Below are positions 41,162-49,087 of a stretch of DNA of 64,000 nt, piece after piece. The first letter of the stretch is position 1, and the number at the start of each line of letters is the position of its first letter. The position numbers were made by a program, and so were the translations under genes. Under the pieces are notes generated by a model, which was given only the letters and a program-made list of their open reading frames with translations, did no database searches and had not been told where the DNA came from. Where the stretch lies: the NCBI RefSeq assembly GCF_988243305.1, contig NZ_OZ547136.1. One strand, 5' to 3'.

Positions 41162-41277
41162 CGCCTTTACTCCCTGTTAGTTGTTATTTATTGCCAATGC
41201 TGAAAGTGGGTTTTTCCCTCACTCTGGAAGCCGAGGGGCCGGGGTGAGGGTAATTGTTTGCACCGGCGCGACTCTGT

Positions 41278-41328
41278 TCCCCTCACCCTAACCCTCTCCC
41301 CAAAGGGGCGAGGGGACTGTCCGTACAC
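41278..41328. repeat. GC-rich dispersed intergenic repeat, copy 1 (between eutG and eutH)
   Basis: tcccctcaccctaaccctctccccaaaggggcgaggggactgtccgtac; near-identical copy at 54671-54720; partial inverted copies (gggtgaggg / ccctcactc) at about 41215-41255. Confidence 0.8.
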
Positions 41329-41330
41329 TT

Positions 41331-43354: not shown

Positions 43355-44758
43355 TTAAACAATGCGAAACGCATCGACTAATACACAGCGACGCAGACGG
43401 ACAAACGTCCGCGCGCTGGTTACCCCTTCACCGGTTGGCGTGGTGATGGTCATGGTGGTCCAGCCTTCCCCGCCCAGCCCCAGCCCGGCAATGCACGGTC
43501 CGTTCTTAACGAAAATGCTGGTATCAATGGCATTCGCCATCTGGTTCATGTTCTCGATATTGCGCGAGTGCATTGCCGCCGTGTGGTGGCAACCGCCTTC
43601 CAGTTTCACCGCCAGCGCAATGGCATCCGCCACGTTGGCAACGCGCACGACGGGCAGCACCGGCATCATCAGTTCAGTCACAGCAAACGGATGTTCTGCG
43701 GTGGTTTCTACAAACAGCAGTCGCGTTTGTTCCGGAACTTTAAGGCCGATTGCCGCCGCGATTTTCGCCGCATCACGACCAACCCAGTCACGGCTGACGG
43801 TGCCTTTTCCGCGCTCGTCGATATTTTTCAGCAACACCGGTTGCAGCTGCTGCGCCTGCTCTGCGGTCAGTTTCACCGCGTGCTGGCCTTCCATCAGACG
43901 CATCAGTTCATCGGCTACGCTATCCACAACAATCAGTACCTTTTCGTCGGCACAAATGATGTTGTTATCGAAAGACGCGCCTTTGACGATGGACTGAGCA
44001 GCACGGGCGAGGTCAGCGGTTTCATCCACCACTACCGGCGGGTTGCCAGCGCCTGCGGCAATCAGACGTTTATTGGTGTGTTTACGCGCCGCTTCTACTA
44101 CCGCTTCGCCGCCGGTCACCACCAGCAGGCCGATGCCCGGAAACTTGAACAAACGTTGTGCGGTTTCGATATCCGGATTGGCCACAGTAACCAGTAAGTT
44201 TTCCGGCCCGCCTGCGGCAACAATCGCCTGGTTGAGCAGCGTGATCGCCCGCTGGGAGACTTTTTTCGCCGCCGGATGCGGGGCAAAAATGACGCTGTTG
44301 CCCGCGGCAATCAGGCTGATGGCGTTGTTAATTACGGTTGCCGCCGGGTTGGTGGACGGAGTTACCGAAGCCACCACGCCCCAGGGCGCGTTTTCAATTA
44401 AAGTCAGGCCGTTGTCGCCCGTCAGCACTTGCGGAGAGAGACACTCAACGCCTGGCGTGCCGCGTGCCTGAGCGACGTTTTTGGCAAATTTATCTTCGAC
44501 GCGCCCCATGCCGGTTTCACTGACGGCAAGTTCCGCTAAATCTCTGGCGTGTTTTTCGCCTGCTTCACGAATGGCAGCAATGGCTAACTGGCGCATTGCC
44601 ACGCTCTTTAACCCTTGCTGGGCAATTTTGGCTGCCGCAACGGCGTCATCCAGGGACGCGAAAACGCCCATCTCATGAACGGCGGCGGGCGGCGTATCAC
44701 TGCTTTGCATTTTCAGCAGTACCGCTTTCACCACCTGTTCAATATCCTGTTGATTCAT
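43355..44758 (-). CDS. eutE: CoA-acylating acetaldehyde dehydrogenase
   Basis: 467 aa aldehyde dehydrogenase family. Confidence 0.95.
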   Translation of the reverse strand: MNQQDIEQVVKAVLLKMQSSDTPPAAVHEMGVFASLDDAVAAAKIAQQGLKSVAMRQLAIAAIREAGEKHARDLAELAVSETGMGRVEDKFAKNVAQARGTPGVECLSPQVLTGDNGLTLIENAPWGVVASVTPSTNPAATVINNAISLIAAGNSVIFAPHPAAKKVSQRAITLLNQAIVAAGGPENLLVTVANPDIETAQRLFKFPGIGLLVVTGGEAVVEAARKHTNKRLIAAGAGNPPVVVDETADLARAAQSIVKGASFDNNIICADEKVLIVVDSVADELMRLMEGQHAVKLTAEQAQQLQPVLLKNIDERGKGTVSRDWVGRDAAKIAAAIGLKVPEQTRLLFVETTAEHPFAVTELMMPVLPVVRVANVADAIALAVKLEGGCHHTAAMHSRNIENMNQMANAIDTSIFVKNGPCIAGLGLGGEGWTTMTITTPTGEGVTSARTFVRLRRCVLVDAFRIV

Positions 44759-44769
44759 GATGTTCTGCC

Positions 44770-45057
44770 TTATTTGTGGAAAATTACCTGACCGCCAGAC
44801 ACCACCTCATCGACGATGCCAATCACGCACAGATCGACCGGTGACGTTTCGCTTTTATGCGCCTGTCGGGCGGAACTGCCACTCACCAGCAACACCCACT
44901 CCCCGGTTCCCGCGCCAATATTGTCGATGGCGACGGCGCATTGCCCGTCAGGATTACCTTGTGGATCAATCATTTCCACCATCAGCAATTTGTCATGCGC
45001 CAGTCCGTGATGGCGTACGGTACAAACAATTTGTCCAGTGACGACTGCCAGTTTCAT
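44770..45057 (-). CDS. eutN: Microcompartment vertex protein (BMC-P)
   Basis: 95 aa MKLAVVTGQIVCTVRHHGLAHDKLLMVEM... Confidence 0.95.
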   Translation of the reverse strand: MKLAVVTGQIVCTVRHHGLAHDKLLMVEMIDPQGNPDGQCAVAIDNIGAGTGEWVLLVSGSSARQAHKSETSPVDLCVIGIVDEVVSGGQVIFHK

Positions 45058-45110
45058 ACCCGCCTCCGTGGCGTATTTCAGGTAAAAGCTCCCCCTACCC
45101 TCCGCGGAAG

Positions 45111-45156
45111 GAAAACTGAAAAAGGAGAGAGCGTGACGCCCGAATCGACGTCACAC
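45111..45156 (-). promoter_or_regulatory. Hairpin plus U-rich tract just after eutM (candidate partial terminator or mRNA-stabilising structure)
   Basis: On the minus-strand mRNA: GUGUGACG-ucgauucggg-CGUCACGC followed by UCUCUCCUUUUUCAGUUUUCC, starting 7 nt after the eutM stop. Confidence 0.3.
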
Positions 45157-45163
45157 AGGGTGA

Positions 45164-45457
45164 TTACAGGTTGCTGCTATCGCCTTTCAGGCCGATCGGG
45201 AAGACTTCTTCCAGGTCGCCGTGCGGACGCGGGATAACGTGAACAGATACCAGCTCGCCGATACGCTGTGCCGCTGCGGCACCGGCATCGGTCGCGGCTT
45301 TACAGGCTGCAACATCACCACGAACCATGGCAGTACACAGGCCGCCGCCAATCTGCTTAACACCAACCAGCTTGACGCGCGCAGCTTTCACCATCGCGTC
45401 AGAAGCCTCAATCAGTGCAACCAGGCCCCGGGTTTCGATCATTCCTAATGCTTCCAT
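45164..45457 (-). CDS. eutM: Major microcompartment shell protein (BMC-H)
   Basis: 97 aa [40 protein letters not shown]... Confidence 0.96.
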
Positions 45458-45495
45458 TGTGCTTTCCTCTTTATCAGGGTCCAGAACGGGACCGT

Positions 45496-46512
45496 TCATT
45501 CAACCAGTGTTTGTAAACTGCTTTCGCGGTTCACTTCTGTCTGACGCGGCACAGCTGCCACCAGCGCCAGCTCGATAATTTCCTGCACGCTACAACCACG
45601 AGAGAGATCGTGCATCGGCGCGGCAAGTCCTTGTATCAATGGCCCGACGGCACGATATCCGCCGAGTCGTTGTGCGATTTTGTAGCCAATATTTCCGGCT
45701 TCCAGCGACGGAAAAACCATCACATTGGCCTTGCCTTGTAGCGGGCTGGCAGGCGCTTTTTGCGCCGCCACTTCCGGCACGAAGGCGGCGTCAAACTGCA
45801 ACTCGCCATCGACTACCAACTGCGGCGCGCGCTCACGGACGATTTCTGTCGCCTGCTGGACGTTGGCAACGCAGGGGTGACGGGCGCTGCCGTTACTGGA
45901 AAACGACAACATCGCCACGCGCGGTTCTTCTCCGGTGATGGCCTGCCAGGTTTCGGCGCTGGCAAGCGCGATATCCGCCAACTGCGCCGCCGTCGGCTGT
46001 GGCACCACGCTGCAATCGGCAAAACCCAACGCCGGACCGCTGTACTGTGGCAGCATCAGGAAAATGGATGAGAGCGTTTTACAGCCTGGCTGCAAGCCGA
46101 TAATGCGTAATCCGGCACGCAGCACATTCGCCGTGGAAGAGAGGTTGCCCGCGATACAGACATCCGCTTTACCGGCGCTGACCATTGCTGCGGCGAACAT
46201 CAGCGGGTCGGTAAGTTTTTCCTGCGCATCCGGCGGCGTTTTTTCGCCCGCGCGGGCCAGCCAGCGATGAGCAAATTCTTCCCGCATTGCGAGGTTGCCA
46301 TGCGGATCAATCACCTGTAGCCCGTCCATCGCTACGCCATGACTGAGCGCAAACTGACGAAGTTCAAACGGATTAGCGACCAGAATGGGCGTTGCCAGAC
46401 CTTGTTGATGTAAATATTGCGCCGCTTTCAGCACACGCTGATCTAACGCATCCGGAAAAACCACTCTGGCGGGCGCTCGCAACGCCAGTTCACGACAACG
46501 TTCAATAATCAT
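45496..46512 (-). CDS. eutD: Phosphotransacetylase
   Basis: 338 aa PTA family. Confidence 0.95.
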
Positions 46513-47312
46513 TGCGTTTCCCCCAGTCGTTGTTGGATCTGCTTCACCGTTAGCGGCGGCTTCGTTACGCTCAGGATCATCATCACGTAGACCGTGCTGG
46601 AAAGGCGGTTCAGCGCCTGCAAGATGTCCGGGCGTAATACTTCAAAGCTGCGGGTGATAAAGACCTGCGCCGCTACGGTTTCGGTTTCCCGCACTTTGGT
46701 GCGTAGCAGATTGAGCAACGCCGCATCGCGCCCGTGGCTGGCTTCCGGCACCAGATGATCGTGGTCGAGATAGCGCAGCGGCTGATGAGAAAGCCGATGC
46801 AGATCTTCGTCAGAAAGCCCGACAATCGCTTGATCGCCCAGCGGTTCCCCCAGCGCATCGGCACGCATAATGTTGCCAAGACGCGAACGGATATCCGCCA
46901 GCCACGGCTGCCACGGTTCCGCCAGTTCAATTTGCAGCCACACTGCCAGCGCAATGGTGCTGTCGAGAACCGCGCGAAAACCCAGACGCGGATCGCTTTT
47001 GGCGACCATTTTTTCAGCCGACAGATGAGTCAGCGTGTCCGGCTTTTTTGCCACCGGCTGGCGGCACAGTTCGCAGCACGCCTGCGGATGTTCATCGCTA
47101 CTGGTCAGCCCGTGAACGGGCTGTGGCTGCTGCTGCTCATCGTCAACAAACAGGCGGCCCTGCTCGTCAATAAACTTGATGCGCAGATGGCGGCTTTCCA
47201 GTAACTCCCGGGCAGAGGGCGTCAGGCGACTGTCCGCAGGGAGATGGATCTCTGCGCCTTCGCTGAGCGTATGGTTCGCTCTTAGCCATGCTTCGGTGAT
47301 GAAATCGTTCAT
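46509..47312 (-). CDS. eutT: Ethanolamine-utilisation cobalamin adenosyltransferase
   Basis: 267 aa, 4-nt overlap with eutD and eutQ. Confidence 0.93.
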
Positions 47313-48812: not shown

Positions 48813-49054
48813 GAGTCGCCGCCTGTGAAAAACTTTCGTGTATCGTGACAATTTTTCGTCAGAGTAAATAACAAAATTCGGCAAGCGCGTTTAAAAGGTG
48901 AGGTAGATCACTAAGAATGGAGAGATATTTACTGTTATGAATAAACTTTCATATGCGACGCATGAATATAAATAAAATAATATCGAGATATTTCATATAC
49001 TGCTTTTTTTATTATTCGTAAACTCAGTAATAAGCTTTACTAATATATTTCAGG

Positions 49055-49087
49055 AAAACCGCTTACCCTGAATATTCAGGGTAAGCG
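49055..49087 (-). terminator. Intrinsic terminator of maeB
   Basis: Perfect 14-bp palindrome cgcttaccctgaat / attcagggtaagcg followed on the minus strand by a T-run, 18 nt after the maeB stop. Confidence 0.75.

Follow-up and report, generated by a model that had tools for sequence, protein, structure and literature searches.

A conserved RNA module in the eutM-eutN spacer of the Escherichia coli ethanolamine utilization operon: a candidate leaky terminator and 3′-exonuclease barrier

Repetitive extragenic palindromic (REP) elements are the classic inter-gene stabilisers of mRNA, as at malE-malF. Leaky internal terminators, such as those of rplL-rpoB and T1 of rpsU-dnaG-rpoD, set the ratios of operon products, and in the fimbrial operons pap, fim and fan a stem-loop downstream of the gene for the major pilin lifts its mRNA above those of the minor subunits. 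Here we describe a conserved, unannotated RNA module, composed of two adjoining hairpins and a U-run, in the spacer between eutM and eutN of the well-studied ethanolamine utilization (eut) operon of Escherichia coli. The mechanism that we propose for it would add one more case to a well-known principle. The window analysed is a 64,000-nt stretch of contig NZ_OZ547136.1 (RefSeq assembly GCF_988243305.1), and positions are counted from its first letter.

Protective 3′ structures between genes shape E. coli operons, and the differential decay that they bring about is widespread there, malE-malF, puf and papBA being described cases (Dar and Sorek 2018, PMC5927463). Most of the structures in that study lie inside the downstream coding sequence, whereas the eut module occupies a dedicated spacer. 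In the eut loci of Firmicutes, terminators are controlled by EutV, an ANTAR protein, whose target consists of two hairpins with six-nucleotide loops, of which the second overlaps the terminator (Kaval and Garsin 2018, PMC5821096). The same review describes no internal terminator for the enterobacterial eut operon, and in the literature that we searched neither a terminator nor a hairpin or REP was described at eutM-eutN.

The window is E. coli DNA, with 100% identity over 801 nt to NZ_CP148331. According to the RefSeq annotation of the identical genome, the genes lie on the minus strand in the order eutS-P-Q-T-pta(eutD)-M-N-E-J-G-H-A-B-C-L-K-R. The product of eutM (45164..45457, minus strand) is the major hexameric shell protein of 97 amino acids, and its UAA stop is at 45166-45164. 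The next gene, eutN (44770..45057, minus strand), encodes the pentameric vertex protein of 95 amino acids and starts with the AUG at 45057-45055. An earlier note on this DNA had drawn attention to a gap of 106 nt between the two genes and to a GGAGG site ahead of eutN. The open reading frame (ORF) coordinates and the RefSeq annotation agree on the former (45058..45163, minus strand), and the latter is found 5 nt before the AUG. The note had also described the operon as tightly packed elsewhere. This is largely so, but the eutG-eutH gap of 169 nt exceeds that between eutM and eutN, and gaps are also annotated at eutK-eutR (45 nt), eutD-eutM (38 nt) and eutB-eutC (20 nt); the remaining junctions all overlap or measure at most 12 nt.

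The spacer carries no annotated feature in RefSeq E. coli genomes and is single-copy. Of the 5426 complete E. coli genomes searched, 5407 contain it; the median is one place in each genome, and the sequence is at least 95% identical in all but 12 of them. A sigma-70 promoter scan of the spacer gave no site on either strand, the sole nearby match being inside eutN; an internal promoter in the spacer was rejected on this ground.

On the sense RNA the first structure is hairpin H1 (45131..45156, minus strand), which starts 7 nt past the eutM stop, where the earlier note had placed a hairpin. Folding extends its stem from the 8 bp described there to 10 bp, with the arms GUGUGACGUC and GGCGUCACGC, the 6-nt loop GAUUCG and a free energy of -16.2 kcal/mol. 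The sequence UCUCUCCUUUUUCAGUUUUCC is present downstream of H1 as first described. The C-interrupted pyrimidine/U-rich tract behind H1 (UCUCUCCUUUUUCAGUU, 45114..45130, minus strand) is likewise there, but it is mainly part of a second hairpin: in the RNAalifold consensus and by pair counts it supplies the 5′ arm of the outer stem of H2 and most of its internal loop.

Hairpin H2 (45088..45132, minus strand; RNAalifold, pair counts) begins about 31 nt past the eutM stop and abuts H1, sharing 2 nt with the base of the latter. Its outer stem is formed by GCUCUCUC and GGGGGAGC, and its inner stem by (U)ACCUUC and GAGGGU(A), closed by a CGCG loop. Together they make up 14-15 bp, interrupted by a U-rich internal loop of 11-12 nt on the 5′ side. 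The window carries a minority allele with a G in the internal loop and an A-to-U change, which creates a U-U mismatch and weakens the inner stem; the free energy of H2 is -14.8 kcal/mol in this allele and -17.9 kcal/mol in the common E. coli allele. In the common allele H2 itself contains a copy of UUUUACCU, in addition to the one in the tail. Directly 3′ of H2 lies the tail UUUUACCUGAAAU (45075..45087, minus strand), a U-run followed by ACC, which is a candidate site of leaky termination or of RNase E cleavage. RNAalifold also predicted a small hairpin, H3 (45061..45073, minus strand), with the 4-bp stem CGCC/GGCG and the loop ACGGA. It overlaps the eutN Shine-Dalgarno sequence GGAGG (45063-45067), and its pair counts contain only a single exchange, U-G/C-G.

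The spacer was compared across eutN loci taken from a single genome of each species and from contigs whose EutN proteins are more distant. At all 54 adjacent eutM-eutN junctions, which come from gamma- and betaproteobacteria, the spacer is 50-252 nt long; not one short junction was seen. Every junction that was folded has a stable hairpin beginning 2-10 nt past the eutM stop. The 52 classified spacers fall into 29 of the H1 family, 16 that hold REP elements or bacterial interspersed mosaic elements (BIMEs), and 7 with other G+C-rich hairpins. REP/BIME spacers occur in Salmonella, Klebsiella pneumoniae, K. oxytoca, K. michiganensis, K. grimontii, Citrobacter koseri, C. amalonaticus, C. sedlakii and Pseudocitrobacter, and the REP elements of Salmonella and Klebsiella begin within about 7 nt of the stop. 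The feature common to all spacer types is at least one stable hairpin just 3′ of eutM. In the hairpin-type spacers the U-run behind the last hairpin is kept as well. A metagenome scan with the EutN alignment returned almost only E. coli and Citrobacter copies, which were used for allele counts, and the plasmid collection yielded no new lineage.

The H1 core GUGRCGYC/GRCGYCAC is kept in Escherichia, Citrobacter, Phytobacter, K. spallanzanii, Buttiauxella, Entomohabitans and Yokenella, and also in a Pluralibacter-like contig and two further contigs. Its stem is invariant among 14 Escherichia alleles. Among the lineages, pairs are exchanged (A-U/G-C, C-G/U-A and U-G/C-G/U-A) and the loop ranges from 4 to 21 nt. 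The H1 arms of distant lineages, GCGUGGCG/CGCCACGC and GCGUGGUG/UACCACGC, differ from GUGUGACG/CGUCACGC by compensatory changes. In every lineage that carries H1 the hairpin begins 4-9 nt past the stop, so close that, judging by the size of the ribosome footprint, a terminating ribosome would cover its first bases.

Compensatory pairs were also found in H2, with C-G/G-C at its base and A-U/G-C and C-G/U-A in the inner stem. In distant lineages the inner stem is built from unrelated sequence (GCCGCC/GGCGGC, GCUGCC/GGCGGU, GCCGUC/GAUGGC, GCCGC/GCGGC). The first of these belongs to contig L054, identified as Pluralibacter gergoviae-like through its EutE cluster; the inner stems of contigs L055 and L056 and of the betaproteobacterium Silvimonas (L058) are also wholly different from that of E. 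coli. All four loci keep H1, the U-rich stretch, H2 and the tail. Across lineages with wholly different inner stems, the CUCCC/GGGAG outer stem, which resembles an anti-Shine-Dalgarno/Shine-Dalgarno pair, persists together with the tail UUUUACCUGAAAU. The tail shows no change among Escherichia, Citrobacter, Phytobacter and L054, and it can still be recognised in Buttiauxella, Entomohabitans, L056, Silvimonas and contigs L140 and L141. The eut regions of L055 and L056 have GC contents of 45% and 59%; over eut regions of 45% to 65% GC the stems show covariation, with loops and linkers differing in length and sequence. In the spacer of Buttiauxella sp. A111 a UUUUACCUGA-like motif occurs twice, right after H1 (CUUCUUUUACCUGAUU) and behind the second structure (CUUUAUCUGAAUU), which looks like a duplication of hairpin and tail as one unit.

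The window sequence alone makes a weak case for more than chance: a scan for terminator-like sites over 14 kb returned 21, when 15.7 ± 4.1 were expected. The significance of the structure comes from the comparison of genomes, namely from its conserved position, its covariation and its sense-strand-specific G-U pairs. RNAalifold applied to 19 spacers of Escherichia, Citrobacter and K. spallanzanii returned H1, H2 and H3. In this alignment 98.7% of the cells form pairs; shifting the 3′ partners by 1-3 columns lowers the value to 50-67%. The covariation score was 0.133, and none of 500 shuffles (0.095 ± 0.007) reached it. Compensatory double changes affect three pairs in the close group; the independent events are few, representing about three lineages. 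Among the 14 Escherichia alleles and the window, 9 of 28 unpaired and 5 of 48 paired positions are variable (Fisher p = 0.03).

A covariance model built from the close group only recognised Phytobacter with an E-value of 7e-21 and Buttiauxella with 2e-6 to 4e-4. Weaker values were obtained for Entomohabitans and L054 (0.002), Silvimonas (0.04) and L055 (0.12). The model hit a single site in the 64-kb window and gave no matches on the REP-type loci. Since G-U pairs are conserved and the sense folds are 2.5-12 kcal/mol more stable than the antisense folds, the structure resides on the mRNA strand. These comparisons support the conclusion that a stable hairpin right after eutM is under selection.

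We compared the module with the described classes of inter-gene RNA structures. With the malE-malF REP, Rhodobacter pufBALMX and papBA it shares conserved hairpins just 3′ of the most-needed gene and a higher level of the upstream RNA. In Salmonella and Klebsiella the slot even holds REP/BIME itself, as at malE-malF, whereas the E. coli hairpins are non-REP and single-copy. Half-sites of the REP consensus palindrome (GCCGGATG.../...CTTATCCGGCCTAC type) number zero in the Escherichia spacer and 2-4 in the REP-type spacers, and with the single-copy state this ruled out a REP/BIME identity for the E. coli spacer. Like the rplL-rpoB attenuators, the module places a hairpin and a U-run between genes of high-copy and lower-copy products, and transcription has to read through it, given that genes essential to the pathway, as well as eutR, the gene of the activator, follow. 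It differs from them in its short U-runs (4 U) and in its tandem hairpins, the first overlapping the second, and termination is here a prediction. The fimbrial operons offer the same succession of a bulk structural gene, a hairpin and genes for minor parts, the vertex protein EutN being next in line; however, eutM is the sixth gene and not the first, and the enzyme genes upstream would be co-stabilised although their proteins are not abundant. The targets of EutV resemble the module in having two hairpins in a row, terminator-like, between eut genes. They differ from it by their hexaloops: the H1 loop has 4-21 nt and the apical loop of H2 4-6 nt. The E. coli locus has no ANTAR regulator, its regulator being the helix-turn-helix protein EutR, and an ANTAR target was thus ruled out. 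The covariance models of Rfam 15 gave no match in window positions 44000-46500 (E <= 10) or in the spacers of seven other lineages (E <= 1).

We consider it on balance probable that the spacer functions as a leaky terminator combined with a 3′-exonuclease barrier, forming and protecting RNA 3′ ends inside the operon. Along the sense RNA the proposed module would be read in the order H1, H2, U-run plus ACC, and eutN ribosome site. Some polymerases would stop at H2-UUUU, which would act as a leaky Rho-independent terminator. Alternatively or in addition, RNase E might cut the single-stranded U/A-rich tail, and a site for this enzyme at the foot of the hairpin would fit the conserved U-run. H1 and H2 would then block exonucleases that proceed in the 3′-to-5′ direction. 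As a result, the eutS-to-eutM message would outlast and outnumber the eutN part and, to a lesser extent, the genes behind eutN.

Within this mechanism H2 followed by UUUU appears to be a better terminator candidate than H1 followed by the U-rich tract. Its tail scores higher, and a further reason is that H1 lies so near the stop that the terminating ribosome would cover its first bases. The stem of H1 lies within the range of intrinsic terminators (about 5-14 bp, loop of 3-8 nt, G+C-rich). Its tail scored 3.15 and that of H2 4.19, with 5.4 for a reference terminator. The sequence after H1, UCUCUCCU, has 4 U in the first 8 positions and that after H2, UUUUACCU, has 5 of 8; both runs are short. 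With H2-UUUU as the better terminator-like unit, 3′ ends are expected at about 45087-45080, and not at 45110-45130, the interval proposed in the earlier note.

Published protein and RNA levels bear on this proposal. For E. coli K-12 W3110 growing on ethanolamine plus B12, quantitative proteomics gave the relative abundances EutQ 100, EutM 96, EutL 39, EutB 37, EutE 27, EutC 24, EutS 11, EutD 10, EutK 8, EutG 7, EutP 7 and EutN 1 (PMC11334477). The approximately 100-fold ratio of EutM to EutN is the steepest step between neighbours in this data set (PMC11334477). RNA-seq of E. coli LF82 in minimal medium (uninduced) and in bile salts provided reads per kilobase per million (RPKM) by gene (PMC6379400). 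The values in minimal medium/bile salts were 20/76 for eutS, 39/166 for eutP, 24/192 for eutQ, 13/83 for eutT, 108/357 for eutD, 55/177 for eutM, 5/62 for eutN, 14/149 for eutE, 13/147 for eutJ, 35/168 for eutG and 106/514 for eutH. In both conditions eutN had the lowest value of the operon, and the step from eutM to eutN was 11-fold in the uninduced state and 2.9-fold in bile salts (PMC6379400), gene-level RPKM being a coarse measure for the 288-nt eutN. As in protective 3′ structures, a stable conserved structure is thus found at a boundary between abundant and scarce RNA (eutM 55, eutN 5; 177 and 62). A pure terminator predicts equal levels for eutN and eutE, whereas with a hairpin barrier and a cut further downstream the segment between the two, eutN, should be the most depleted; the minimum at eutN fits the latter.

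In the uninduced LF82 data RPKM rises from 13 at eutT to 108 at eutD and falls from 55 at eutM to 5 at eutN. These values describe a basal RNA island of eutD and eutM with its end at the spacer (eutT-eutD-eutM, about 45164-47312), which hints at an internal start in eutT or eutD, or at a stable, hairpin-capped decay product.

A number of results weigh against the proposed terminator and barrier. The fold of the whole spacer in the window allele has a z-score of only -1.46, and 16 of 200 shuffles folded as well. The U-runs are short, 4 U after H2 and a C-interrupted 4 of 8 after H1, so any termination must be weak. Term-seq of uninduced K-12 detected no sense-strand 3′ end in the spacer (Adams et al. 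2021). In induced cells the RPKM of eutE is 84% of that of eutM, and the genes from eutH through eutC stand above eutM (PMC6379400). Polarity across the junction is therefore small, the induced RNAs of eutE, eutJ and eutG (149, 147 and 168) being near that of eutM (177). An expression step between eutM and the downstream genes, as the earlier note had supposed, is seen in the RNA drop after eutM and in the EutM:EutN ratio of about 100, but it does not extend to eutE, whose induced RNA almost equals that of eutM. Protein levels do not follow a simple pattern of high upstream and low downstream values either: EutS, EutP and EutD (11, 7 and 10), encoded upstream with EutM, are rarer than the downstream EutE, EutB, EutC and EutL (27, 37, 24 and 39; PMC11334477). 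For this reason a single step at the mRNA level cannot set the stoichiometry, and the idea of one partial terminator doing so has to be revised. From the proteomics and the induced RNA-seq, any polarity would be modest, and gene-specific translation must do most of the stoichiometric work. The REP-type spacers lack a U-run, which implies that the function shared by all spacers, if any, is protection rather than termination. Finally, two conserved features are not accounted for by the proposed mechanism, namely ACCUGAAAU behind the U-run and the outer stem CUCCC/GGGAG.

There is an effect specific to eutN, since EutN stands at 1 while the adjoining EutE, encoded 11 nt downstream of eutN, stands at 27. 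The spacer might be a translational insulator that uncouples eutN from the heavily translated eutM and holds EutN at about 1% of EutM, with little part played at the RNA level. The EutM:EutN ratio of about 96:1 fits such an insulator, as do the overlap of H3 with the eutN Shine-Dalgarno sequence and the fact that no other junction has the gene of a very high-copy protein before that of a very low-copy one. Against this, eutN has a strong GGAGG at ideal spacing, and the stem of H3 is only 4 bp long. At the eutN start the predicted accessibility (0.40; Shine-Dalgarno 0.53) is within the range of the other eut genes, and occlusion of the eutN ribosome site was discarded as a candidate on the same evidence. 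Long-range pairing of the post-stop region with the Shine-Dalgarno sequence appeared in single-sequence folds, but the partners differ between Escherichia and the C. freundii group, and this candidate was dropped, too. Moreover, eutN RNA is the lowest in the operon, so the RNA level contributes, and a bare spacer would already uncouple the genes, leaving two conserved hairpins and a U-run unexplained. We regard the insulator as unlikely. The opposite side of the junction can also be considered, with H1 lowering the expression of eutM through ribosome stalling, trans-translation and mRNA cleavage. Liang and Deutscher reportedly observed in 2015, for REP sequences, that a stable structure within 15 nt of the stop leads to stalling and cleavage. 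H1, at 4-9 nt, and the REPs of Salmonella and Klebsiella, within about 7 nt, are inside this distance; however, only EutQ exceeds EutM in abundance, whereas the mechanism would predict a lowered level, which makes such a role very improbable. Translation of the spacer itself, as a small ORF, as an upstream ORF or by read-through of the stop, was rejected: E. coli has a 22-codon in-frame extension, but the loop indels of other lineages are not multiples of three, and an upstream AUG of Citrobacter corresponds to ACG in E. coli.

It could be argued that the spacer has no function, and is a tolerated gap which gathers hairpins and REP insertions and is conserved by shared ancestry only. REP elements do insert into many intergenic regions, the window allele has a stem-weakening A-to-U change and a modest fold z-score, and induced RNA barely drops from eutM to eutE. 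Yet the operon is otherwise compact and the spacer was lost in none of 54 lineages; stems covary while loops and linkers vary, and polymorphisms avoid the stems. An absence of function thus seems decidedly improbable. To about the same degree we doubt that H1, H2 and the tail are a regulated RNA. In that case a protein, a small RNA or Hfq would bind them, or they would be set free as a small RNA from the 3′ end of eutM, and read-through into eutN-to-eutR would be modulated and not fixed. A hairpin with a U-run is the architecture of Hfq-binding RNAs. Conservation goes beyond the needs of a passive hairpin, with the tail UUUUACCUGAAAU, ACCUGAAAU and CUCCC/GGGAG persisting; the gene of the activator, eutR, is downstream, and the basal eutD-eutM RNA island of uninduced LF82 ends at the spacer. 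Nevertheless there is no Rfam family, a search of the eut mRNA for further sites complementary to the tail found none, the loops differ in length among lineages, and Salmonella and Klebsiella do without the element. A pseudoknot between the H2 internal loop and the tail was rejected as well: the 4-6 bp complementarity present in most lineages is low-complexity pairing of U-rich with A-rich sequence, indistinguishable from chance.

A broader form of this idea, which we hold to be unlikely, is that H1, H2 with CUCCC/GGGAG, and the tail UUUUACCUGAAAU constitute an undescribed regulatory RNA of the long eut operons of proteobacteria. It may be an attenuator or processing site controlled by a factor, or it may give rise, from the 3′ end of eutM, to a small RNA that gates eutN-to-eutR and with it the EutR feedback loop. 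If so, it would have escaped notice because Salmonella, the model for eut genetics, has lost the element and carries REP in its place.

The module after the main shell gene is a concrete, mutable handle on the question of how a 17-gene message yields an approximately 100-fold range of protein levels. Ethanolamine microcompartments matter for gut colonisation and are being re-engineered as nanoreactors; moving eutM or the operon without the spacer could change shell-to-cargo ratios. The exchange of the hairpins for REP in Salmonella and Klebsiella could serve as a natural test of functional equivalence.

Further observations concern the same operon and its relatives. The terminator of maeB (49047-49087, minus strand), which follows that gene and shortly precedes the eut promoter region, is a 12-bp hairpin followed by GUUUUCCUGAAAU, which is identical to the H2 tail UUUUACCUGAAAU in 11 of 13 positions. 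The number of near-matches in the window is close to chance, and the likeness may be a coincidence; the Term-seq supplement had no maeB or eutS entry by which the tail could be calibrated (Adams et al. 2021). The same Term-seq data contain a 3′ end antisense to eutM, at 45234 on the plus strand (sequence 45174-45234), about 70 nt into the gene from its stop, and the antisense transcript ending there must cross the eutM-eutN spacer.

EutM has a possible alternative start, an in-frame upstream ATG at 45499 that overlaps the eutD stop (ATGA) and would give a protein of 111 amino acids (additional segment 45458-45499, minus strand). The RefSeq start at 45457, which gives 97 amino acids, has its own AGAGGA site. 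In the LF82 paper eutM is the long form of 335 bp, and its RPKM was computed on that length. The eutG-eutH spacer (41162-41330, minus strand), the largest gap of the operon with 169 nt, is dense in inverted repeats of G-runs and C-runs (CCCCUCGCCCCUUUGGGGAGAGGG; AGGGUGAGGGG...CCCUCACCCC). There may be an internal promoter or a second stabiliser in it, since the RPKM of eutH in LF82 is about three times that of eutG in both conditions.

K. spallanzanii (L042) has an H1-H2 spacer of the Escherichia/Citrobacter type and an EutM that is 98% identical to that of E. coli, unlike the other Klebsiella (L028-L030, L035), which have REP/BIME spacers. This pattern suggests either that REP elements invaded once the lineages had split or that the eutM region was exchanged. 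Three contigs of 269-466 bp labelled Gemelliphila (L018), Prolixibacteraceae (L032) and Caballeronia (L043) encode an EutN close to that of E. coli, and so does a sequence labelled Bifidobacterium dentium (protein P0001). The identity is 87-100% for all four, which are probably enterobacterial contamination of the assemblies.

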